From an uncultured Thermodesulfobacteriota bacterium (GTDB lineage: Bacteria > Desulfobacterota > WTBG01 > CAIYCZ01 > CAIRTM01): DNA of 64,000 bases. Positions 45,793-62,847 of the stretch are shown piece after piece. A program made the translations under genes and the position numbers. The stretch is taken from positions 131,619-195,618 of the forward strand of contig CAZUMW010000003.1 in NCBI GenBank assembly GCA_964621615.1. The letters run 5' to 3'. Every line of letters starts with the position of its first letter. The stretch's first letter is position 1. The notes under the pieces are model-generated. The model saw nothing but the letters and a program-made list of their open reading frames with translations, was not told where the DNA came from and ran no database searches.

Positions 45793-45869
<77 letters not shown>

Positions 45870-45987: not shown

Positions 45988-47457
45988 TTACTTTTCACTG
46001 TCTGCCGGAGAAAATATCCTGTCCAGAGCGTGCAGTTCAGCATTGTTGCTGTTGTTTTCGACATATTTGCTGTAGACATTGATAATCATCTCCGTGTTCC
46101 GGTGACCCATCATATGTGCTATGTACAACGGGTTGACACCGTTACTGAAGGCGGTTGTGGCAAATGAATGCCGTGTCTGCCGCAAGTCACGGTACGCTAC
46201 ACCGGCATCCTCAAGGGCTGTTGCCCATACCCTTTTTCTGAAGTTGTCGATGTCGATTCGCTTACCTTCAGGGGTGCAGAAAAAATATTCACTGCCGAGT
46301 GTGTTATGAATTTTTTTCTGTTGTGTCAGTATTTCAATCATACCTGGCGTCAGTTTTATGGTTCTTCTGCTGAAGGCATTTTTTGTTCTGCCTTCAATGA
46401 TTTTGCCTTGCGCATCACGAGTCATAGCACGCCTGATATGCAGAAGACCTTTCTGCCAGTCAATGTCCCCCGGCTTTATTGCCGTTTGTTCTCCATGCCT
46501 CATGCCGCAGCAAAATGCGAACCTGATATACGGTTTCCAGTGGGTGGGGGTATGATGCACTATTTCCTGCTGCTCCTGTAGTGTGCACGGGTTGATTTTT
46601 TCATACGAGTTATCCTCTTTCAGTTTCTTGAAGCCGAAGAACGGATTGTATACTGCACCCCAGTTGTACTCTATAGCTGCGTCTTTACAGATCAGTTTCA
46701 GCGGAATGAAAATATTATTGATAGTCTTATTACCGATCACCTTGTTTTTGAGTTGCCGGTTACGGGACCAGGCCACGAACCGTTCAAAAACAGTTTTGTT
46801 CAGATGTGCAAATGTATAATTTTCAAAGAATGGTTTAATGTAATTGTTGAGATAGCTTTTGTAATCACGAAGCGTCCTTCCGGTCATACGTCCCGTTGCT
46901 TCAACCGTTTCAATCCACCGTTGCGCATAATCTGCAACGGAAACCTCACCGGGCGGTTTAGGCATTCCCAGAAGCCGTTCTTCTTTCTGCGTAAAATAGT
47001 CCTTCTTTCTGCTTTCAGGAAAAACCTCTGCGAATCTGAACTCACCGGACTTGATGGCAAGGATTATTTTGTCAAGCTGCTGCCTGACGGTCTTCACATT
47101 TTTTTCATTCCACCTGAGCCCGGCACTCTCACGGACCCGCTCGCCCATGTACCGGAAATCGACATATATGGTGCCGTTCATGTTACGTATGGAGCCCTCA
47201 CGGTTTCTGTTCAGGCCCTGCTTTCTGCCTTTACGGTTTGTCCTGGGCAGTCGGATAACCTCGGCAGACATACCACTGTTGTGTGACATATCTATCCTCC
47301 AGTCATCGGCATCCCTCCTTTCTGCTGATTTTCCCTTGTCATAGATTATCATAGCCGACTGCCTGTTCAAACCAAAATTATATGTTGATAGAGCTCTTTG
47401 CCGGGGACTTTTTTGTGCCTTTTTCGGCAGTATCCCTGCACACTTCTGTACCGTCAT
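45988..47457 (-). CDS. int: Tyrosine-type site-specific integrase
   Basis: C-terminal catalytic domain with R...HxxR...Y residues (HSFATTAFSNGVNPLYIAHMMGH...NVYSKY). The start is uncertain: internal Met at 47352 or 47286 would remove the overlap with the excisionase gene. Confidence 0.8.
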   Translation of the reverse strand: MTVQKCAGILPKKAQKSPRQRALSTYNFGLNRQSAMIIYDKGKSAERRDADDWRIDMSHNSGMSAEVIRLPRTNRKGRKQGLNRNREGSIRNMNGTIYVDFRYMGERVRESAGLRWNEKNVKTVRQQLDKIILAIKSGEFRFAEVFPESRKKDYFTQKEERLLGMPKPPGEVSVADYAQRWIETVEATGRMTGRTLRDYKSYLNNYIKPFFENYTFAHLNKTVFERFVAWSRNRQLKNKVIGNKTINNIFIPLKLICKDAAIEYNWGAVYNPFFGFKKLKEDNSYEKINPCTLQEQQEIVHHTPTHWKPYIRFAFCCGMRHGEQTAIKPGDIDWQKGLLHIRRAMTRDAQGKIIEGRTKNAFSRRTIKLTPGMIEILTQQKKIHNTLGSEYFFCTPEGKRIDIDNFRKRVWATALEDAGVAYRDLRQTRHSFATTAFSNGVNPLYIAHMMGHRNTEMIINVYSKYVENNSNNAELHALDRIFSPADSEK

Positions 47458-48604: not shown

Positions 48605-48691
48605 CAAAAGACAATGATGATCCTGCCTGCAATGACCCCTCAACAGCATTGAGAGGGGTCATGAAGAAGACTTCTTTCGGAGGTATCTACA

Positions 48692-49066
48692 ATGCAAATG
48701 CTGGAAACCAGACAGACACAGGAACCCGAAAGGGAAAAGCAGAAAGCGACCGCAAAACAGATAAACTATATCAACATGCTGGCAAAACAGCTGGGCTTTC
48801 ATGTAAATGCCGGCGAGTTGAGTAAGCGGACAGCGGCACAAAAAATAGAGCTGTTCAGAAAGATACGGTTGTCCGAGCTTCAACAAAAATCAAAAGAGCA
48901 GGAGGTGCGGATGGCCATGGTGAAAAAGCTTATCTACAAAAAGTGGCTCATGCACAACAAGGAAATCAGCAGGCAGACCGAAAAGGCCTTCATGCAGGAG
49001 GTGTGCTATATCCATCGGTTGTTCAACAAAATCGACAGAGTGGCTGCAGCCAATGAAGCGGCATAG
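48692..49066 (+). CDS. Hypothetical protein
   Basis: 124 aa, charged/helical. Good SD (GGAGGT) upstream. Confidence 0.35.
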   Translation: MQMLETRQTQEPEREKQKATAKQINYINMLAKQLGFHVNAGELSKRTAAQKIELFRKIRLSELQQKSKEQEVRMAMVKKLIYKKWLMHNKEISRQTEKAFMQEVCYIHRLFNKIDRVAAANEAA

Positions 49067-49421: not shown

Positions 49422-50156
49422 ATGAATCACCGAAAGCGCATAAAAGATTCTGAAACTCCTTGGAAAACCAATGGTTGGGTTCCATTTGCGTTAGTTGAAA
49501 ATGAGGCAGAATTTGAAACGCTGCACAAATACCTACTGCTAGTTGAAGATCATATCAGAGACAAAACTGTGGCATTCGCGAGCAATATAAAGAAGACGAT
49601 AGAAAGACTAGGCCTAAGCGGACAAGATGCTGACTATTACTACGAGTCACATGAAAATGAATATGGCAGATTGCATGAAGCGTATCCCAACATTGCCCGT
49701 GCCACTGTGCTCTCAATGGCTTGTTCAGTTTTTGAAAGTGGACTTACAGAGATTTGCAAGGAGTTCGAAAGGACGGATGATGTGCAAACGACCCGAATCA
49801 AGTGGGATAAAATAAATAATGCAACCGGAATAATCAGAGCAAAAAAATACATCAAAAAAAATTTTGATATTCATTTTAATGAACATCAAGAGTGGCAGGC
49901 AATCCGAGATTATTATAAGGTGCGAGACTGCTTTGTACATGCGAACGGCGATGTATCTCTCATGAAAGAGAAGCAAAGTAAAGATATCGAATCGATTACC
50001 CGAAGAGTACCAGGGGTCACCATAGAATATAAACGTTTAAGGCTAGATAGCCGAAGATTTTTCGACGGTGTCTTTGGGACCATGAGTAGATTTTGGTCAG
50101 ACTTGAGGATAGCATTTCGAGAAAACGAAATTGTTGGTCCCGTTTACTGGGAGTAA
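49422..50156 (+). CDS. Hypothetical protein with HEPN-like Rx4H motif
   Basis: 244 aa, AT-rich codon usage. C-terminal region YYKVRDCFVHANG (K-x-R-D-x-F-V-H). Confidence 0.45.
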   Translation: MNHRKRIKDSETPWKTNGWVPFALVENEAEFETLHKYLLLVEDHIRDKTVAFASNIKKTIERLGLSGQDADYYYESHENEYGRLHEAYPNIARATVLSMACSVFESGLTEICKEFERTDDVQTTRIKWDKINNATGIIRAKKYIKKNFDIHFNEHQEWQAIRDYYKVRDCFVHANGDVSLMKEKQSKDIESITRRVPGVTIEYKRLRLDSRRFFDGVFGTMSRFWSDLRIAFRENEIVGPVYWE

Positions 50157-50250
50157 GAACAGATTTCATAGTCATCATGGAAAAAGAAATAGTCTATCAC
50201 ATTGTTCAGCAGATTGGTGCTTTGTGACTGCAGCTAAGCAACTACGCTAG

Positions 50251-51279
50251 TTGTACAAACAGATTATTATGATCGCAAGAATTTACATACAACTCCCATT
50301 CGCTTTAACAATTCCGGAAAAAGAATCTTATCCAGTTTATGCCTATAAATTAGGTGCTTACAATATCTACTATTTCTTTCCGAAGAGAAGCGAGATGGCA
50401 AATAGATATTCCAGCGCTGACAGCATGAAAATGGACGGTAAGCCCGCAATGAGTGCAGATGTCTTACATATTGATTTCCAGACAAAAAGATTTAACCGAA
50501 AAGTCGATGCACAGGTTGATCCTCCGCCTGAATTGATAGAAGAAATTGCAAACGATTTTTTAGCAAGATTGAGATATGTTACCAATGCAAGCAAAATTAA
50601 ATTGATAAAATTATCTAATTTAAATTGGTCTTGTACATATCTGAAAGATGACGGCACTGAGTTAAGGAAAAATAAGCGCTATATTTGTGGCAGAGGAGTG
50701 AGAAAGTTCGTTTTTTCTTATGTGGCGTTGGATAAACAAATTTGGGAGGATATTCACTCTATTCCTCCGGGTTATGAATTTCCGGTTTGGAAAACGCTAT
50801 TACTTGATGCTGCTTCAATATTACCGGAAACTGGTCCAGCAATCATTTTGACCTTTACAGCATTAGAGGTGTTCATTTCAAAAATATTAGATAGTGTAGC
50901 CAAATATAATAAAATTGATCGGGATTTTTGGGGATGGGTCAATAGCCGAGGTTATTTAAAAGAACCAAGCATTGAGGAGAAATATAATTTTTTATCGCTA
51001 CATATAATTGGGAAATCAATAAAAGAGAATAATGATCTTTGGGAGGCTTTTAAACATCTCCGTAAGGCAAGAAATTCGTTCGCACACACTGGTGTAGCAA
51101 TGATTGGTGATGAACTTGTTACAGAAGAGAAAACCCGTTTTTTTATACGCAAAGCCAAAGAAATAATAGATTTTATAAAAAAAGAAATTCCAGAAGAATT
51201 GCGATGGCTTGAGTTTAAGCATGGAGTACAAATGGAAATTATCCAGGCGTTAAGACAGTCTATGGAAGAAGAGCAGTAA
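50251..51279 (+). CDS. Hypothetical protein with HEPN-like RNx3H motif (Abi-like)
   Basis: 342 aa, AT-rich. C-terminal region HLRKARNSFAHTG (K-x-R-N-x-F-A-H). Size and motif are reminiscent of the Abi_2 (AbiD/AbiF) family. Confidence 0.45.
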   Translation: MYKQIIMIARIYIQLPFALTIPEKESYPVYAYKLGAYNIYYFFPKRSEMANRYSSADSMKMDGKPAMSADVLHIDFQTKRFNRKVDAQVDPPPELIEEIANDFLARLRYVTNASKIKLIKLSNLNWSCTYLKDDGTELRKNKRYICGRGVRKFVFSYVALDKQIWEDIHSIPPGYEFPVWKTLLLDAASILPETGPAIILTFTALEVFISKILDSVAKYNKIDRDFWGWVNSRGYLKEPSIEEKYNFLSLHIIGKSIKENNDLWEAFKHLRKARNSFAHTGVAMIGDELVTEEKTRFFIRKAKEIIDFIKKEIPEELRWLEFKHGVQMEIIQALRQSMEEEQ

Positions 51280-51353
51280 CGTCGCTGCATTTGGGGTTTC
51301 CCCAAGAACAATTCATCACGCCCCGCTTCTCCGGTGAAACGGAGCGTGATAAA

Positions 51354-51575
51354 ATGTCTCGAAAAGATAAAAAATTATGTGAGGTTTGCTGTCGTCTGCG
51401 GAATGATGTGCCTGTGGACAGGTATCACGTTTGTGAAGCCTGTCGCAGAGGCGGCAGCGGCATGCCGCGAAGGCTTTCGGTAGTTACACTGAGCAGGGGC
51501 AAACACTATTTCATCGATAAGCGGCTTAAAGAACTGCGCAATGTCGAAAATCCGCTTGACAAAATTGACCTGTAA
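51354..51575 (+). CDS. Small zinc-ribbon protein
   Basis: 73 aa with CEVCCRL...CEACRRG (CxxC-x13-CxxC). GGAG-cgTGATAAA-ATG leader. The longer ORF from 51291 lacks an SD. Confidence 0.4.
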   Translation: MSRKDKKLCEVCCRLRNDVPVDRYHVCEACRRGGSGMPRRLSVVTLSRGKHYFIDKRLKELRNVENPLDKIDL

Positions 51576-51604
51576 GCCGATTCCTGCCACACAGTCAATA
51601 GTGC

Positions 51605-52132
51605 CTAACGTATCGTGAAATAACAGCCATCCGGGCGCTGAATTTTATCGATCGCGTACACTGATTCCTGCGTCAGTTTCCTGTTCAGCCGTGAAAGCTG
51701 GACCCGCAAAGCAGGTATATCGCGAACATCAAGCCTGCTGTTGTGTGCCGATTCGAGGATTTGTGTGTAATTTTTTTCACCCTGACTCAATATTTTAAAA
51801 AGCCCGAGCTGCTTGGGGTTGAGTATGGTATGGATGTTTTCACTCTGGCGCTTTTTCCTGTCAGCTTCAAGCTTTGCCGGTGCATTTAATGTTATCTCGG
51901 TGAGTTCTTTTTTGAGCTCTGCTATGGTATTTTCCTTTTGCCTGATTTCCGTTTCCCGGTCGTTGAGAAGGCGCTGTGTATATCGCAATTCGGATTCCTT
52001 TTCAATTCTCAATGATATGATTTCCTGTTCCAGCTTCTGTATATTTTCGAACAGATCGCGCGGTGCCAGAAAATAACGGATACTGTTCAGGATGCCCTGT
52101 CTCTTTTCCATCGGTATCACCTTTCGTAACAC
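51605..52132 (-). CDS. Hypothetical coiled-coil protein
   Basis: 175 aa, heptad-rich (EQEIISLRIEKESELRYTQRLLNDRETEIRQKENTIAELKKEL). Confidence 0.4.
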   Translation of the reverse strand: MLRKVIPMEKRQGILNSIRYFLAPRDLFENIQKLEQEIISLRIEKESELRYTQRLLNDRETEIRQKENTIAELKKELTEITLNAPAKLEADRKKRQSENIHTILNPKQLGLFKILSQGEKNYTQILESAHNSRLDVRDIPALRVQLSRLNRKLTQESVYAIDKIQRPDGCYFTIR

Positions 52133-52401
52133 ATGATATCATACATAACGGTACCGCCTGTTTATAAATCTTTTGGTATGTCTCCGGTCGTATCGATGGG
52201 TATTACCTGTGTTGATATGCTGATATATTGTTTTTCATCACGGCTAAAGATTTATTGTCCGGTTCGCTCATCGCGAGCCGGAACATAAATCGTTCCCCCT
52301 GCGGGGTCGCCTGAAAAAGTATATGATCGACTGCACAATACGGGGTTTGTTCAGGGAGCAGCTGTTTTGTGTTTGATGTGATTTCGTGATCGTTTTAACC
52401 C

Positions 52402-52432
52402 CCAAATCTTTTCTCAGGACAGAAAGATTTGG
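52402..52432 (+). promoter_or_regulatory. SD-sequestering leader hairpin (copy A)
   Basis: CCAAATCTTT-tctcaggacag-AAAGATTTGG (10-bp perfect stem). The 3' arm overlaps GGAGG, then ctgataacc-GTG. Confidence 0.5.
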
Positions 52433-52444
52433 AGGCTGATAACC

Positions 52445-52903
52445 GTGAAACAAACCGACATACAATCCGTGCGGATACACAATATGGTGGAATATATAAG
52501 AAACAGCGGCAGGTTCTTATGCGATCTGTATGAGCTTGCAGAGCGGGGGATACAAAACATTCTCAGGGAGGATTTTGATATATACGGGTCCTTCACCGAT
52601 GAGGAGATGGCGGTACTGAAAGAGGATCTTTACAGGATGGCCTTTGACAATGAAATGCGTGAGGCACAGTATCTGTATAGAAGACTGATTCCGTATGATG
52701 AGGGTGAGGATTTGCTTCATTCGTCTCCTGACAACATATATGGAAAGGTTACTACGTACCGGGCCGGTTACAGCTATCCGGTGCAGAGAAGTATCAGAAT
52801 GCTGCCGGTGGTTAGATATCCGTTAAAGGCAGTAAACGGTAAAGAGATGAGTCATTTGGAGCAGACAAATAAGGTGTTAAATGAGCAGCTTGTGGGGGAT
52901 TAG
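52445..52903 (+). CDS. Hypothetical protein
   Basis: 152 aa, GTG start 9 nt after GGAGG. No recognised domain. Confidence 0.4.
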   Translation: MKQTDIQSVRIHNMVEYIRNSGRFLCDLYELAERGIQNILREDFDIYGSFTDEEMAVLKEDLYRMAFDNEMREAQYLYRRLIPYDEGEDLLHSSPDNIYGKVTTYRAGYSYPVQRSIRMLPVVRYPLKAVNGKEMSHLEQTNKVLNEQLVGD

Positions 52904-53095
52904 GATCAGCAGGCTGATGATTGTTTGTTGAGGGAAGGGGTGCCCGGGGAAAATTTTATTGTCCTGAAAAACAAAAAAGTTTTTCAGAATCATAAATTTT
53001 TCCCCTTGGTTTGGGTGGTTGCAACAGAGTGTTTTTTTTAAGGCGGCTGATGATTGTTGTTTGGTGCGTGCGCTTTTGCAGCGGGGTATCAACCC

Positions 53096-53125
53096 CCAAT
53101 TTTTTTATCAAACAGAAAAAATTGG
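53096..53125 (+). promoter_or_regulatory. SD-sequestering leader hairpin (copy B, paralogous to copy A)
   Basis: CCAATTTTTT-tatcaaacag-AAAAAATTGG (10-bp stem). Differs from copy A by compensatory changes. The 3' arm overlaps GGAGG, then ttgataaa-ATG. Confidence 0.5.
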
Positions 53126-53136
53126 AGGTTGATAAA

Positions 53137-53268
53137 ATGGATTATGAAATGCATACAGTTTGTCTTTTTTGCGGGAAATGGCTTGAACCCGAAGAGGAGA
53201 AATCAGGTATTGCTTTTTGTTCTTCCTGTTATGAGATGTACCGGGAAGTTGCCTGGAAGGTTCATTAA
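53137..53268 (+). CDS. Small zinc-ribbon protein
   Basis: 43 aa, MDYEMHTVCLFCGKW...CSSCYEMY (CxxC-x18-CxxC). SD GGAGG 8 nt upstream. Confidence 0.4.
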   Translation: MDYEMHTVCLFCGKWLEPEEEKSGIAFCSSCYEMYREVAWKVH

Positions 53269-53682
53269 GTGGGGAGCAGCTCCCCCCCTTCACCCCCTCA
53301 GGGGGAAATTTCCGCTCCTTTTAGTCGCGCTATTGATATCGCTCGCTTTTTTTATTTTTTGGCTGGTTGTAAAAATAAAAGAGAATCGCGACCGTACGGT
53401 CGTGGTTCGAGCATGAGCGTGAGAAAGAAAGAGATAATATGAATAATACAGAGATATGTTTAAATCGAAGCGGGAAAGCTCCTTGAATTTGATCATAATG
53501 ATCAAATAATTAAATAATTAAAATAGAGATAATAATAATAACTTCTGAATTTGGTTGCCGGTCCTGTATTGTTTGGGGAAGGGCTCATCATGGTGCCCGG
53601 TTTTACCGGGTGCACATGTGAAGGCAATGAAAAGAGGAAAAGGGCCGGATTGCCGCACTTGGCAGGGTCCGGCCCGGCAGGA

Positions 53683-54405
53683 TTAATCACAGATACTGCA
53701 CCCCTTTTTTCTTTCAACCGTACTGCAGAATTCCGGGATAGTCCCGTCAAGAAACATCTCCTTATAGTTCCACACCCGCATCCTGTCCATAAAGAGGGTG
53801 TCGACCGCATACAGTACGATGCCTCCAACCACTTTGAGTATATCCTTTATGGCCGGCGTACCCGGGCAGGGGTTTTTACCGTCATTGATTGCATCGGGCC
53901 TGAAGCAGCCGAAACAGGCTTTGCCCGGCTCCTGCACATACACGTAGCCGGCATTGCCGAGTTCATTCACGGCAGTGAATATGACCGGTATGTTCCGGCG
54001 GTAATAGTAGTCGGAGACAAACACCCTGGCCGCATCATTGTCAACGCCGCATACCGCAACATCACAGCCAATGTCATGGGAGTCGAACCCGGCGGCATCC
54101 TGAAACTTCCAGGGAAAACCATTAAGACGGGTATCTCCAATACCGTCATGAACCAGGTTTTGTGCAAGCTGCACGGCCTTGTTTTTGTACAGATCTTTTT
54201 TGTAGAACCGTTGCCGGTTAAGGTTTGAAAGCTCCACCGTATCGTCATCAAAGATGCTAAGGGAGCCGACCCCCTTCCGGACAAGTCCCTCGCCGATCTC
54301 GCTACCCAGTCCACCGGCACCGATGAGGTTCAGTCTCAGCTTCCTGAATGTGTTCTGGCTGAACCCTTTGATCTTCTCCTGCCGATCGGTTGCCGGGGCC
54401 TCCAT
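53683..54405 (-). CDS. E1-like ubiquitin-activating / ThiF-MoeB family adenylyltransferase
   Basis: LNLIGAGGLGSEIGEGLVRKGVGSLSIFDDDTVELSNLNRQ nucleotide-binding fold. Two CxxC pairs (ACFGCF, GCSICD). Start placed at MEAPATD (54405). The longer frame to 54690 would run antisense-free but overlaps the JAB gene. Confidence 0.7.
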   Translation of the reverse strand: MEAPATDRQEKIKGFSQNTFRKLRLNLIGAGGLGSEIGEGLVRKGVGSLSIFDDDTVELSNLNRQRFYKKDLYKNKAVQLAQNLVHDGIGDTRLNGFPWKFQDAAGFDSHDIGCDVAVCGVDNDAARVFVSDYYYRRNIPVIFTAVNELGNAGYVYVQEPGKACFGCFRPDAINDGKNPCPGTPAIKDILKVVGGIVLYAVDTLFMDRMRVWNYKEMFLDGTIPEFCSTVERKKGCSICD

Positions 54406-54952
54406 CCTGTGCGTTTTCTGCAGCGGCGTTACGGTTAAAAAAACCGGCTGTTGTGAATCTGAAATGTGTGTCGTCAATTTGCTCAACCCCCTTTCCGTAG
54501 ACGTGAATAATAAAGGGTAGATTGTGTGAAAAAAATCTGATCTGCCCGTCTCTGGTAAATATGCCGCCGATGGCATTGTATCCTCCCGCCTCAATCCGTG
54601 CCTGGTAGTCGAGGTCGATACCCGATGGCGATGAGAAATTTCCGGGATGGCTGTGAAAGTGTGCGTGAAGGCGATGGCCGAACATTTCATCCATTGTTAT
54701 AAGGGTTTTTGCCACCGAATTGATATCGGTTTTGACCTGTACGGGGCTCTGAGTTTGCATCTTTACCTGCTGCATATAGTCAAAGGTCCGCATCCAGCCC
54801 ACCCTGATACCGGTGACAAAATGAAAGACTTCATTAGGACCCATTGAGGTTAGGTACCGGTAACACCGGTACAGAAAAAGCGAGCCGGTCATGAAACACA
54901 GAGGCGTTGCAAGCTCATTCTTGCCTTTCTGAAAAACGTTCGGAAAAAACAT
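54302..54952 (-). CDS. JAB/JAMM (MPN+) family metallopeptidase
   Basis: JAMM motif E...HAHFHSHPGNFSSPSGID (H-x-H-x7-S-x2-D). The 3' end overlaps the E1-like gene by ~100 nt in another frame. Confidence 0.7.
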   Translation of the reverse strand: MFFPNVFQKGKNELATPLCFMTGSLFLYRCYRYLTSMGPNEVFHFVTGIRVGWMRTFDYMQQVKMQTQSPVQVKTDINSVAKTLITMDEMFGHRLHAHFHSHPGNFSSPSGIDLDYQARIEAGGYNAIGGIFTRDGQIRFFSHNLPFIIHVYGKGVEQIDDTHFRFTTAGFFNRNAAAENAQDGGPGNRSAGEDQRVQPEHIQEAETEPHRCRWTG

Positions 54953-54973
54953 GGCATACCTCCCCTGGCAGAT

Positions 54974-55354
54974 TTAAAATCCAAAATATATTTCATGTAT
55001 GATTCGTTCTATGTGAATTATCCCCGAATCGATATCCCGCGGCTGCCGGCTGAAGTGAATAAAGAATTTTCCACCGCCTTTATGGTTGTTGAAACATGCA
55101 CCATGTTCGGGATGATCCAGGATTTTTCCGGTTGGTTCATAAATATAGAACCTGAGTTCGGTCGGAAGACGATATTCTTCGATAAGGCCTTGAAAGTCGG
55201 TAAGCAAGGAGATTTTATATCGGCCGTGATAGGAAAACCCCAAACCTCTGGGGCTTCGTATCCAGCCGTTTTCCTCCCAGTAGGGTTTCAGGGACCGCTT
55301 TATCCGCAGCGGTCCGGTCCTGAAAGCCGGGTCGGATTTGATGCGGATGGTCAT
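54974..55354 (-). CDS. Putative E2-like (UBC-fold) protein
   Basis: 127 aa from MTIRIK (strong SD AGGAGG 8 nt upstream). Contains a DHPEHGAC segment resembling the E2 HPN-x-Cys active-site region. Positioned between the Ubl and JAB genes. Confidence 0.4.
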   Translation of the reverse strand: MTIRIKSDPAFRTGPLRIKRSLKPYWEENGWIRSPRGLGFSYHGRYKISLLTDFQGLIEEYRLPTELRFYIYEPTGKILDHPEHGACFNNHKGGGKFFIHFSRQPRDIDSGIIHIERIIHEIYFGF

Positions 55355-55418
55355 AGGGTATCCTCCTTTCAAAAAAAAAGAGGACAGCAGGATGTCGGCA
55401 CTGCTGCCCTCCCATAGA

Positions 55419-55646
55419 TCAGCCGACCATAGCATTGGTGATTGCAAAGAGTTTGGCACCGTCATTAACATGCGGGTACACCACCTCGGTATCGGCAAAC
55501 GGAGGATGTGAGGGACCGAGTGAGAGTTTGTAGCCATAGAGGTTAAGCTGGTGGCAAATATCATATGCTGTTGTGCCGGGTTCTATAGTGATGTCATGGG
55601 GTTCCCCGTCGGTGCTTGCTACCTTGACTGCAAGTCTTTTTGCCAT
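55419..55646 (-). CDS. Putative ubiquitin-like (beta-grasp) protein ending in Gly
   Basis: 75 aa (MAKRLAVKV...AITNAMVG-stop). The size, a Gly immediately before the stop, and the position at the head of the E2-JAB-E1 genes support a Ubl. SD GAGGAG 9 nt upstream. Confidence 0.45.
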   Translation of the reverse strand: MAKRLAVKVASTDGEPHDITIEPGTTAYDICHQLNLYGYKLSLGPSHPPFADTEVVYPHVNDGAKLFAITNAMVG

Positions 55647-55659
55647 GATATGTGTCTCC

Positions 55660-55917
55660 TCAGGATATGGTTTTTTTGATGTTTTCATCCGGTTTGCTGC
55701 CGGTGGAATTGACCAGACCCTGCATTACTTCAGGCCGTTCACCGGTGATCAGATCCTCAAGATCGGTAAGGCTTTTCCACTTCATGGCCTTCAATATCGT
55801 CAGAATCTCAAGCAGTGTCCTGCAGGTTTTCAGATCAATTCCCTTCACTTTTTCCTGCACGATATTTTTGAGAACGATATCGCACAGGTCCTGCTTTTTT
55901 TCATTTTTGCCGGACAT
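55660..55917 (-). CDS. Small hypothetical protein heading the Ubl-E2-JAB-E1 operon
   Basis: 85 aa, Lys-rich and helical. Very strong SD (AGGAGGTG). Its stop is 13 nt before the Ubl start. Confidence 0.4.
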   Translation of the reverse strand: MSGKNEKKQDLCDIVLKNIVQEKVKGIDLKTCRTLLEILTILKAMKWKSLTDLEDLITGERPEVMQGLVNSTGSKPDENIKKTIS

Positions 55918-59701: not shown

Positions 59702-60057
59702 CCCCGCAATGTATCCGTTACCGGGATACACATCACACACAGGCAGATAACTTATAAAGCGATTTTGGTGCCTGACGGCTCGATAACGTAAAGCGACAGG
59801 TGAGCCATTGTATGAAACGGAATCTCCCGACGAGAACGCCGGGGGAGCCGTGATTTATACAGCTGCAGCACTATTTTTGGAGAAAGGGGGTGTTACCGAA
59901 AAATTATACCATTTGTAACCGGCTTATTCTTAACCGAAAGGAGGTGGACGGCACGCAGTAAAACACATTTTTTTACATTGTCACATCATCTTGAAGGGGG
60001 CGGGCGGCACAGTACAGTGCAGCTTGTCCCCTTTTTTTTCAAGAAAGGAGACAAGCT

Positions 60058-60999
60058 ATGATGAAAACAAAAAGCAACAAATCAGAAAATGGGTTCAATC
60101 TCTATCAGCACATCACTGATAAAATCATTGAAGCGCTTGAAAAAGGTGTCGGACCGTGGGTGCGGCCATGGGACGATTCCGGAGTGCAGTTCATCTGGCC
60201 GAGAAACGCGTTATCGGCCAGACCGTACAACGGGATAAATGTCCTGCTTTTGAACATGGTTGCCCTTGAAAAAGGCTATACGGACCCGCGCTGGGTGACC
60301 TTCACCGATGTAAAAAAGCGCGGCGGACACATAAACAAAGGTGAACGCCATACAAAAATCGTTTTCTGGAAATTCCTGGAGCGCCGGGACCGACAGGAAG
60401 ACGACGACACGCACAGAGACGAGCATACCGGTAAAAAGGTTATACCGCTTCTGCGCTATTACCGTGTTTTTAATGTGCAGCAGTGCAAGGGTTTAAAATT
60501 AAAAGAGCTTCAGAAGCCCGAGCCGGAAACTGCTGCAGGCGGGGAAAACATCCGGGCGGAAAAAATCCTGTCACTGCCCGACATACGAACCGGCGGGAAC
60601 CGTGCCGTCTATCATCCTGGACAGGATATCATACAGCTGCCGCCGAAAACATCTTTTAAAAACCTGCAGCATTATTACGCCACCGGCTTCCATGAAACGG
60701 TTCACTGGTCAGGTCACGGTACACGGCTTACCCGCAGTTTCGGTAAACGATTCGGTGACGACACATACGCAATGGAAGAGTTGGTTGCCGAGATCGGATC
60801 GGCATTCCTGGGCGGTCATGTCGGTCTGCCGTTTACGGAGATGCGTCATCCTGAATACATACAGTCCTGGATTACATCCCTGAAAAACGACAACAGGGCA
60901 ATATTCACCGCATGCCGGATGGCGCAGGCTGCAAGTGATTACATTTTGAAAAACGCCGGCATTGACCGGCCTGAGGACCAAACAGCGGCTGTCCTCTGA
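60058..60999 (+). CDS. ardC: ArdC-like antirestriction protein (N-terminal ssDNA-binding domain + zincin metalloprotease domain)
   Basis: N-terminal NLYQHITDKIIEALEKGVGPWVRPWD...PYNGINVLLL (DUF1738/ArdC-N). C-terminal HETVHWSGH (HExxH). Confidence 0.75.
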   Translation: MMKTKSNKSENGFNLYQHITDKIIEALEKGVGPWVRPWDDSGVQFIWPRNALSARPYNGINVLLLNMVALEKGYTDPRWVTFTDVKKRGGHINKGERHTKIVFWKFLERRDRQEDDDTHRDEHTGKKVIPLLRYYRVFNVQQCKGLKLKELQKPEPETAAGGENIRAEKILSLPDIRTGGNRAVYHPGQDIIQLPPKTSFKNLQHYYATGFHETVHWSGHGTRLTRSFGKRFGDDTYAMEELVAEIGSAFLGGHVGLPFTEMRHPEYIQSWITSLKNDNRAIFTACRMAQAASDYILKNAGIDRPEDQTAAVL

Positions 61000-62339: not shown

Positions 62340-62388
62340 CAAAACAGACAAGCCTCCGGGTCACACTCCCGGGGGCTTTTTTATTATA
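62340..62388 (+). terminator. Rho-independent terminator
   Basis: AAGCCTCCGGG-tcacact-CCCGGGGGCTT followed by TTTTTATT. Confidence 0.55.
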
Positions 62389-62400
62389 AGGAGAAAGCCG

Positions 62401-62847
62401 ATGAAGCGGATAAACATAGTCAGGATAATGCAGGTTCGGGAGGGCAATCTTTCCTATGATACATCGACTGTGTCATGCAATGGTGATGCGGCACATATCG
62501 TCGAAAAATTCCTGGAAGGCGTCGACCGTGAACACTTCGGCGTGCTGTGTCTGAACGCAAAAAACAGGATCAATGCCATCAATACTGTTTCCATCGGAGC
62601 GGTTGACCAGTGTATGGTAACCCCGCGTGAATGCTATAAGGCAGCCATTCTCAGCAACAGCGTATCAGTAATATTTTTTCACAACCACCCCAGCGGCGAT
62701 CCTGCGCCCAGCCGACATGATACGCATTTGACCGGAATCCTGGTTGAAAGCGGAAAGATCCTGGGCATAACGGTTCACGACCACATCATCACAGCCGGCA
62801 ACGGCAGATACATCAGCATGCGGGATGAAAATCCCGACATGTTCTGA
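62401..62847 (+). CDS. radC: RadC-like JAB-domain protein (UPF0758)
   Basis: VIFFHNHPSGDPAPSRHDTHLT is the RadC/JAMM signature. Common on conjugative elements. Confidence 0.8.
   Translation: MKRINIVRIMQVREGNLSYDTSTVSCNGDAAHIVEKFLEGVDREHFGVLCLNAKNRINAINTVSIGAVDQCMVTPRECYKAAILSNSVSVIFFHNHPSGDPAPSRHDTHLTGILVESGKILGITVHDHIITAGNGRYISMRDENPDMF

Follow-up and report, generated by a model that had tools for sequence, protein, structure and literature searches.

Three small genes on a mobile genomic island of an uncultured Thermodesulfobacteriota bacterium (assembly GCA_964621615.1, contig CAZUMW010000003.1) are each preceded by a hairpin which holds the Shine-Dalgarno (SD) sequence in its 3' arm and ends 0-9 nucleotides (nt) before the start codon, at 51354, 52445 and 53137, respectively, with the SD 7-9 nt from the start. 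All coordinates refer to the window, i.e., the whole stretch of DNA analysed, 64,000 nt in length. We consider it on balance probable that these hairpins, here called copies 1 to 3, act in cis as translational locks, each in the 5' leader of a plus-strand mRNA. A duplicated leader cassette, placed before two unrelated orphan genes, contains copies 2 and 3, and the gene of an ArdC-like anti-restriction protein further along the island has a related leader. The hairpins were first described from the letters of the DNA (the sequence-only reading), and the three leaders quoted there match the window DNA exactly. The leader before 51354 reads CTCCG-gtgaaa-CGGAG-cgTGATAAA-ATG, the leader before 52445 reads CCAAATCTTT-tctcaggacag-AAAGATTTGG-AGGcTGATAAcc-GTG, and the leader before 53137 reads CCAATTTTTT-tatcaaacag-AAAAAATTGG-AGGtTGATAAa-ATG. 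The hairpins and the genes behind them, with protein lengths in amino acids (aa) and stem lengths in base pairs (bp), are as follows.

51312 to 51353, plus strand: copy 1, a hairpin occluding the ribosome binding site (RBS), with an 18-position helix and three C.A mismatches.
51354 to 51575, plus strand: gene 1, encoding a 73-aa CxxC...CxxC orphan protein; an independent gene caller gave the same start.
52393 to 52444, plus strand: copy 2, hairpin B of leader cassette L2, with a 13-bp core (52399-52435) and a weak outer helix.
52445 to 52903, plus strand: gene 2, encoding a 152-aa orphan protein from a GTG start; independently called.
53087 to 53134, plus strand: copy 3, hairpin B of leader cassette L3, with a 19-bp stem and one C.A mismatch.
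53137 to 53268, plus strand: gene 3, encoding a 43-aa CxxC...CxxC protein which matches phrog_10532 at 4e-5, a family without an assigned function there.

The stems announced by the sequence-only reading are present, although their length had been underestimated; both folding and a hairpin scan gave longer helices, which contain C.A mismatches. Because the stems extend further than first described, the TGATAA that had been taken for a separate motif is not an independent signal, and TGATA(A) serves both as 3' strand of the outer stem and as the stretch separating SD and start codon. In copy 1 the SD, GGAG at 51341-51344, lies within the 3' arm, and the end of the stem abuts the ATG at 51354. 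The core of copy 2 consists of CCCCCAAATCTTT paired with AAAGATTTGGAGG, with one C.A mismatch, and includes the SD GGAGG at 52431-52435. The stem of copy 3 consists of TATCAACCCCCAATTTTTT paired with AAAAAATTGGAGGTTGATA, and the SD GGAGG is found at 53124-53128. The flanks AACCCCCAA and TTGGAGGYTGATAA are common to copies 2 and 3, whose loops, TCTCAGGACAG and TATCAAACAG, are alike. The repeat at the start codons occurs twice as TTGGAGGYTGATAA and once as GGAGCGTGATAAAATG. Copy 1 shares GGAG..TGATAAAATG with copy 3 and is otherwise not alignable; it is a looser analogue of copies 2 and 3 with the same general layout. The predicted folding energy was -18.1 kcal/mol for copy 1 (z-score -3.4) and -22.4 kcal/mol for copy 3 (z-score -4.4). 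Copies 1-3 do not qualify as intrinsic terminators (GC-rich stem with a U-tract) on the plus strand, where the only terminator-like element is a 5-bp mini-hairpin in the 5' arm of copy 3 (GGGGTATCAACCCC followed by CAATTTTTTT); on the minus strand, copy 1 is terminator-like.

According to the folding predictions, the SD of copies 1-3 is about 80% paired (probability of being unpaired about 0.2) in any upstream context of 60-180 nt, which agrees with the claim that it is base-paired in all three leaders and makes this independent of the upstream context included. The single unpaired base of the SD is an A facing a C. When the RNA begins inside the hairpin, at -40, the SD becomes 60-76% unpaired. 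The predicted cost of opening the RBS was 16.4, 12.4, and 13.1 kcal/mol for the three leaders. For 30 chromosomal genes of the window the median cost was 8.1 kcal/mol; their 90th percentile was 12.1 and their maximum 16.6 kcal/mol. The proposal that these genes are translationally off by default is plausible at such values; as an extreme state it does not hold, since 12.4-16.4 kcal/mol does not exceed the chromosomal maximum.

We infer from these predictions that the hairpins would form in the mRNA and repress translation. A pyrimidine-rich anti-SD, CCCCC or CUCC, would pair with the SD, and the helix, reaching to 0-9 nt from the start codon, would block binding of the 30S subunit, whose access would need an opening of the helix or absence of the 5' arm. 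The likely role would be to keep cargo genes silent or at a trickle. Because copies 1-3 are without a built-in alternative fold, release would need one of three things: the 5' arm could be lost, by processing or through transcription starting internally, the 30S subunit could stand by on the U-rich spacer, or a factor could act in trans; alternatively, the leaders may act as constitutive strong damping.

Copies 2 and 3 belong to a longer repeated unit with the following parts.

52214 to 52444, plus strand: leader cassette L2, upstream of gene 2, a paralogue of L3 by global and local alignment with 52904-53136.
52904 to 53136, plus strand: leader cassette L3, upstream of gene 3, starting directly after the stop codon of gene 2.
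52249 to 52291, plus strand: hairpin A of L2, with outer stem GATTTAT/ATAAATC and inner stem TCCGGTTCGC/GCGAGCCGGA; -30.8 kcal/mol, z-score -3.7.
52946 to 53005, plus strand: hairpin A of L3, with outer stem GGGGAAAATTTTAT/ATAAATTTTTCCCC and inner stem TCCTGAAAAAC/GTTTTTCAGAA; -28.3 kcal/mol, z-score -5.9.
52912 to 52929, plus strand: first L3 copy of the r-box, GGCTGATGATTGTTTGTT, an exact match to the pattern.
53045 to 53062, plus strand: second L3 copy of the r-box, GGCTGATGATTGTTGTTT, which includes the ATG at 53050, in frame with gene 3.

The likeness between L2 and L3 spans about 235 nt upstream of both genes and goes beyond the hairpin; with the hairpin left out, the alignment scored 76 versus 56.6 +/- 6.2 for shuffled sequences, a score reached by one of 300 shuffles. 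Each cassette is ordered as r-box, long hairpin A, U/G-rich spacer, and RBS hairpin B. Hairpin B is the best-conserved segment with 88% identity, compared to approximately 60-65% for the rest of the leader. In hairpin A the flanks are kept, while the inner stem is wholly different between the cassettes and yet complementary in each. Complementarity has been kept despite sequence change in both hairpins, by two compensated pairs in hairpin B and by the swapped inner stem in hairpin A.

The r-box, GGCTGATGATTGTT(T)GTT, is represented by two exact matches to the 18-nt pattern GGCTGATGATTGTTKKTT, with a chance expectation of 0.19 matches (up to 3 mismatches allowed). Its core, GGCTGAT, recurs as the SD and TGATAA of copy 2. 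Weaker occurrences of this T/G-rich box were noticed at 52218 and 52354-52380, and each copy contains an ATG. It could have been a start site that has since decayed, or it could bind a regulator or serve as a standby tract for ribosomes. A divergent 168-aa gene looked by eye like an OmpR-type regulator that might bind the r-box; this candidate was dropped, as its protein had no Pfam match and its matches in PDB were an armadillo-repeat artefact.

Two pairs of the 13-bp core stem are changed between copies 2 and 3, each with compensation (A-T to T-A and C-G to T-A); over the whole hairpin two pairs are compensated, 14 invariant, and two, in the outer part, broken. By our own estimate, four random substitutions would land as two compensating pairs with a probability below 1e-3; complementarity is therefore being maintained. 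Templated correction of a DNA palindrome would yield the same picture as selection on RNA. A covariance model trained on copies 2 and 3 only (R1) was used to search 162 kb of sequence. Leaving aside the copies it was trained on and the reverse complements, its best plus-strand matches were copy 1 (20.5 bits, E ~0.002) and the leader of the ArdC gene (18.9 bits), both ending on the start codon, and no other match was found in the 162 kb. The retrieval of copy 1 by a model of the other two bears out the shared architecture of the leaders.

Motif scans with fixed flanks and a free stem covered genomes of 185,579 species, metagenomes and viral contigs. The matches numbered one in genomes, five in metagenomes, and four in viral contigs, which by our own estimate is the chance level. 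The single genome match lies inside coding-like sequence and has no hairpin, and only two of all scan matches (L020 and L021) have a start codon with a long open reading frame (ORF) close behind. Neither protein nor motif searches revealed further copies of copies 1-3 elsewhere, and the check named by the sequence-only reading itself thus turned out negative for them. A search of Rfam 15, radC-type and antirestriction-associated motifs included, gave only the tRNA at gathering thresholds, and with E up to 5 the island and seven ArdC loci gave only noise, i.e., models of miRNA, snoRNA and similar. Genes 1 and 2 were matched only by themselves among 5.8 billion proteins (gene 3 was not searched), and no DNA similar to the locus was present in the plasmid collection. 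From these searches, copies 1-3 appear to be private to this island.

The fourth leader, found by the hairpin scan and retrieved by R1, precedes the ArdC gene and is described by the following features.

60021 to 60057, plus strand: copy 4, the SD-occluding hairpin AGCTTGTCCCCTTT/AAAGGAGACAAGCT; 18.9 bits with R1, and 28.6 bits (E 1.6e-7 to 1.5e-6) with a second model, R2.
59993 to 60039, plus strand: alternative fold of the ArdC leader, formed between a pseudo-SD arm, GAAGGGGGCGGGC, and GCTTGTCCCCTT, with T8 after it (terminator-like).
60058 to 60999, plus strand: ArdC-like anti-restriction gene (ArdcN and MPTase-PolyVal domains; Pfam 6.1e-39 and 1e-41).

In our own hairpin scan, copy 4 directly abutted the ATG of the ArdC gene, so that a hairpin ends at the start codon in four leaders. 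The alternative fold leaves the SD free (probability of being unpaired 0.70), and its competing duplex has a predicted energy of -22.9 kcal/mol, as against -10.7 +/- 2.7 kcal/mol for shuffled sequences (0 of 300), as expected of the anti-anti-SD in a three-part riboregulator (anti-anti-SD, anti-SD and SD). ArdC homologues number in the thousands, the nearest named ones being from Thermodesulfatator and from metagenome-assembled genomes of Deltaproteobacteria and Desulfobulbaceae. The leaders of eight lineages, with 56-100% protein identity, were compared. The SD-occluding stem abutting the ATG is kept in seven of them and lost in L007. The core of the lock consists of the anti-SD GCUUGUCYCC facing the SD arm GGAGACAAGC, and the outer extensions are variable and re-paired.

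In a five-sequence alignment, the occluded fold (an upstream hairpin A' and the SD stem) is 85% paired with six compensated pairs, a level reached by 3-8 of 500 shuffles. The mutually exclusive fold, in which the anti-SD is taken up by the upstream pseudo-SD arm GGGAGCAAG so that the true SD becomes free, is better supported: over five lineages it is 92% paired with seven compensated pairs, and its covariation is 0.50 versus 0.32 +/- 0.05 (1 of 500 shuffles). Because about 17 of the cells in this SD-free fold are G.U on the plus strand, the plus-strand RNA is the structured molecule. The base facing the A of the SD is U in some leaders and C in others, in covariation with the pseudo-SD (A-U twice, G-C twice, G.U once); the C.A mismatch recurs in the SD helix because this facing base also pairs with the pseudo-SD. 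In the window, L010 and L026, the alternative hairpin is followed by a U-run and is terminator-like.

The model R2, built from five ArdC leaders, recovered the window copy, on which it had not been trained, with 28.6 bits, as well as L010. Two more copies were found in L026, a related island, directly before unrelated genes of 187 and 224 aa; the leader stands in L026 before three unrelated genes, each with its own re-paired lock. In total, ArdC-type leaders were located at window positions 59993-60057 and in L010 (464-521), L023 (8-99), L011 (4161-4243), L024 (1351-1431), L025 (1163-1244), and L026 (348-439, 1339-1423, and 2020-2102). A scan of the viral collection for the ArdC lock gave three unrelated matches. 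Copies 1-3 are not members of this group by R2, with 5.8 bits for copy 1 (E 2.6), 5.2 bits for copy 3 (E 4.3), and copy 2 unlisted. ArdC leaders form a conserved family of their own, in which the same lock is combined with a competing fold, and are apparently bistable. Conservation and covariation in homologous islands, expected by the sequence-only reading, are found for this related leader and are missing for copies 1-3. Judged by its sequences, the two-hairpin ArdC leader, absent from Rfam, is a candidate for a new cis-regulatory RNA family of integrative elements.

Two further leaders of the island have hairpins near the SD.

62343 to 62403, plus strand: RadC leader; the 3' arm of its terminator hairpin (62350-62378), together with the U-tract, is able to base-pair with the SD before radC (start 62401).
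48630 to 48691, plus strand: leader of a 124-aa gene, with a 10-bp hairpin (48630-48660) and then a short SD-pairing hairpin before the ATG at 48692.

The RadC leader scored 10.1 bits with R2 (E 0.12), in register, and its SD is mostly free in context. The same arrangement, a terminator hairpin with U-tract followed by an SD that is pairable via A-U and G.U, recurs at many gene starts of L007 and L010. Because the SD is mostly free in context, this layout is perhaps no lock and may be a by-product of tight gene packing. The SD before 48692 is paired more weakly than in the main copies (probability of being unpaired about 0.26).

Several results weigh against translational locks as the function of copies 1-3. 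The difference between copies 2 and 3, presented by the sequence-only reading as covariation typical of a selected RNA structure, comes from two sequences only and is statistically uninformative, since 138 of 500 column shuffles do as well. Copy 2 alone, at -15.4 kcal/mol (z-score -1.4), is not significantly above the stability of shuffled sequences. The opening costs of the leaders are in the top decile and yet within the chromosomal range. None of the one, five, and four scan matches has the same self-complementary hairpin, and with genes 1 and 2 being orphans and the motif not found again in the three collections, copies 1-3 have no comparative support of their own. Routes of release are likewise lacking in the predictions: upstream competitors for the anti-SD arm were equalled by 141, 143, and 54 of 300 shuffles for the three copies, no sigma-70-like promoter was found inside the hairpins, and coupling to an upstream ORF through the TGA of TGATAA was dropped as inconsistent among the copies. 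The start of gene 3 is ambiguous. Counted from the ATG at 53137, with GGAGG 8 nt upstream, the protein has 43 aa; the gene caller gave 72 or 79 aa, corresponding by our own arithmetic to ATG 53050 or GTG 53029, and translation from either would read straight through hairpin B. Hairpin A has no proper U-tract after it on either strand, which leaves its insulating role as an analogy only. Finally, the minus-strand RNA folds better than the plus-strand RNA (-28.9, -22.1, -22.7, and -21.0 versus -18.1, -15.4, -21.5, and -19.3 kcal/mol for copies 1-4), and each core mismatch on the plus strand is C.A, which is G.U on the minus strand.

The last two observations favour palindromes selected on the opposite strand or as DNA, i.e., a cis-antisense small RNA (sRNA), a convergent terminator, or single-stranded DNA hairpins in conjugation, an explanation which we hold to be unlikely. 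Copy 1 read on the minus strand has an 18-bp stem without mismatch, G.U wobbles included, followed by the T-rich TTGTTCTTGG, which was flagged as terminator-like, and it lies downstream of a convergent 168-aa gene with about 30 nt between the stop codons (51575-51605). There is a precedent in IS200, where an antisense sRNA, art200, is made opposite an SD-sequestering hairpin (PMC4513863). The putative leading-region genes are all on the plus strand, which by inference from leading-region biology would make the minus strand the template or transferred strand. However, neither a minus-strand nor a DNA role predicts that the hairpins end at the start codon in four independent cases with a correctly spaced SD. 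On the minus strand, a U-tract is lacking in copies 2 and 3, and the ThiF operon seems, by inspection, to have its own terminator-like hairpin with a U-rich tail near 53600-53650. As for the C.A/G.U asymmetry, a count of our own over every helix, with hairpin A and the outer stems taken in, gave about 8-9 C.A versus 3 G.U, a difference without significance. In the ArdC family, the G.U-rich alternative fold of the plus strand explains the C facing the A of the SD. Both points weakened the asymmetry, which was set aside as a proof of minus-strand function. A little less probable, in our opinion, is that the palindromes have no regulatory function, having arisen by duplication and been kept by templated (quasipalindrome) correction, with the SD pairing as a by-product of pyrimidine- and U-tracts. 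The limitation of the module to one island with orphan genes downstream, the separation of copies 2 and 3 by just two compensated pairs, the pairing of upstream terminator U-tracts with SDs at many gene starts of related islands, and the overlap of the opening costs with the chromosomal distribution would all fit. Against it stand the higher conservation of hairpin B compared to the remaining leader, the end of the helix at the start codon in four leaders, and the ArdC lock, which covaries across lineages at 56-66% protein identity and has been re-created before the three genes of L026.

The sequence-only reading had connected the leaders with zinc-ribbon proteins. Two of the three downstream proteins do have the CxxC...CxxC pattern as described; the connection itself gained no support, as the two proteins are unrelated and without an informative Pfam match. 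A trans-activated switch, in which the zinc-ribbon protein of gene 1 or gene 3 melts the hairpin as Mu Com does on mom, would use the fact that two of the three locked genes encode such mini-proteins, and the similar loops of copies 2 and 3. In Mu, a stem-loop occludes the translation start signals of mom, as found here too, and the small zinc-finger protein Com binds a hairpin beside the inhibitory structure and exposes the start signals (PMC6483171). The system here differs in that it has no Com homologue (neither gene 1 nor gene 3 matched Mu Com or another informative Pfam family at E <= 5) and no separate Com-type binding hairpin adjoining hairpin B. The proteins of genes 1 and 3 share no similarity, and the zinc-ribbon genes are themselves the targets of the locks, not an upstream activator. 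We regard such a switch as very unlikely. The faintest chance is given to translational coupling or leader-peptide attenuation by an ORF ending at the TGA of TGATAA, or to RNA thermometers. ORFs running through the hairpin end at this TGA in two copies, one of 37 codons beginning at TTG 53019 in copy 3 and one of 17 codons beginning at GTG 52386 in copy 2; the reading frame from ATG 53050, which is that of gene 3, also passes through hairpin B, and the central stems are rich in A and U. By our own reading, however, copy 1 has no such ORF, with an in-frame stop three codons upstream, and the upstream ORFs have no SD and differ between copies in their frame relative to the motif. Temperature, one of the triggers suggested earlier, does not agree with the predictions, in which the SD stays paired up to 65-75 C. 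A thermometer of the ROSE or fourU type was rejected, as the probability of the SD being unpaired is 0.20-0.25 from 10 to 65 C and the anti-SD is CCCCC, not UUUU.

A number of other candidates were tried and rejected. A T4-type internal start from TGATAAAAT, an extended -10-like sequence of copies 1 and 3, would start past the ATG and is absent from copy 2. By inspection, no oriT or rolling-circle nick site, Fur box, CsrA site, or sigma-54 promoter fits all copies. Integron attC sites are recognised by R''/R' core sites (RYYYAAC ... GTTRRRY), extrahelical bases, and an IntI nearby, and known sites are longer than 37-48 nt. The hairpins here have this length of 37-48 nt and no bulged bases, only copy 3 has AAC...GTT (by inspection), and the integrase is of the Arm-DNA-bind_2/Phage_integrase type.

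Taken as translational locks, copies 1-3 are new examples of a well-known kind, the RBS-sequestering leader hairpin, and selection at the RNA level is not demonstrable for them. In the leaders of T4 gene e, soc and I-TevI and of the MS2 maturation gene, hairpins or long-range pairings bury the RBS; in T4, translation takes place only from transcripts that start inside the hairpin, at late promoters, and in MS2 only before the final fold is reached (a kinetic trap). The leaders here resemble them in that an RNA starting at -40 is predicted to have its SD freed, and differ in that no promoter-like site lies in the hairpins and copies 1-3 have no kinetic-trap fold, whereas the ArdC leader has one. 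Copies 1-3 have in common with the ArdC family an anti-SD/SD stem abutting the ATG, a second hairpin upstream, and several copies per island before unrelated genes; they are without the competing pseudo-SD arm and score only 5-6 bits (E > 2) with R2 or are unlisted.

By analogy, the design of copies 1-3 most resembles the left end of IS200. The leader of IS200 tnpA has two upstream inverted repeats, of which the first blocks impinging transcription and the second forms a stem-loop in the 5' untranslated region that sequesters a near-consensus SD and blocks the 30S subunit; an S1 or standby site has been proposed in the form of a single-stranded tract that precedes the SD (PMC4513863). Two hairpins, the second sequestering the SD, and a mobile element silencing its own gene are the points of likeness. 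Here, by contrast, no Y1/HUH transposase gene follows the hairpins (genes 1-3 had no Pfam match to Y1_Tnp or any transposase family), and the module is duplicated before unrelated cargo genes. Hairpin A, in the place of the terminator-like first repeat of IS200, is very stable (-28 to -31 kcal/mol) and lacks a proper U-tract. In Cluster K mycobacteriophages, the repeat SAS contains an SD and stands directly before the starts of some non-structural genes, and about half of the SAS have in addition the ESAS, imperfect 17-bp inverted repeats with a 4-13 bp spacer, for which a role in translation is suspected (PMC3203893). An SD-containing repeat at start codons is found here as well. The ESAS repeats lie upstream of the SD, are conserved in sequence, and number 11-19 per genome (PMC3203893), whereas in the island the stem includes the SD and varies in sequence from copy to copy, and the copies are only 2-4 in number, in another host and type of element.

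The leaders sit on a mobile genomic island integrated at a tRNA gene, as seen from two features and from the GC content, which falls from 54.4% to 45.6% past the tRNA gene.

45793 to 45866, plus strand: tRNA gene at the boundary of the island (Rfam tRNA, 64.5 bits).
45988 to 47457, minus strand: tyrosine integrase of the island (Pfam Arm-DNA-bind_2 1.1e-17, Phage_integrase 4.6e-16).

Further genes of the island encode a PD-(D/E)XK nuclease, a HerA/TrwB-like ATPase, ArdC, RadC, and DUF6573, a set usual in integrative and probably conjugative elements; L007 is a syntenic relative of the island. Defence-like cargo lies beside the locked genes, at 49422-51279 and 53683-55688. The first part comprises two HEPN-type proteins, 49422-50156 and 50395-51279 (PADLOC RTasHEPN 3.9e-7; the HEPN matches in Pfam are weak), and the second, on the opposite strand, an E1 (ThiF) gene, an overlapping weak JAB ORF, and small ORFs upstream. 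Between gene 3 and the ThiF operon, the stretch 53420-53550 is very AT-rich, has the internal repeats AAGAAAGAGATAATATGAATAA and AAAATAGAGATAATAATAATAA, and takes in all of the region's promoter-like matches, four in number; it may serve in regulation or mark a place where modules were joined. There is no terminator between the stop codons of gene 1 and the 168-aa gene, and their transcripts probably overlap fully, which makes antisense regulation possible. A 120-aa ORF in another frame, 53054-53416, overlaps gene 3.

RBS-sequestering hairpins are textbook matter, and three such leaders alone would not be surprising. The more interesting by-product of this work is the ardC leader, which is conserved, covarying, apparently bistable, portable, and not in Rfam. 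The lock is modular: a cassette of about 235 nt stands before orphan genes, and another cassette with the same logic stands before three genes in L026. Such modularity suggests a stock of silencing leaders, carried by mobile elements for reuse on their cargo. A wider proposal, which we put forward as improbable, is that portable two-hairpin locks are a general device for expression control in this family of integrative, probably conjugative elements, with the ArdC type being bistable and copies 1-3 a permanently locked variant. Each cargo or leading-region gene would then be given its own copy of the lock leader. In the ArdC type, the first fold would free the SD and a later or alternative fold would bury it, giving a short, self-limiting burst of translation on entering a new host and silence when resident; copies 1-3 would be a stripped-down variant needing processing or a trans-acting factor. 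The timing of leading-region and anti-defence genes after DNA transfer is an active question, and an analysis of leading regions has pointed out that a finer study of hairpins might reveal more (PMC13478746). Reusable silencing leaders would help to explain how toxic or defence cargo, such as the HEPN and E1/JAB genes next door, is tolerated.

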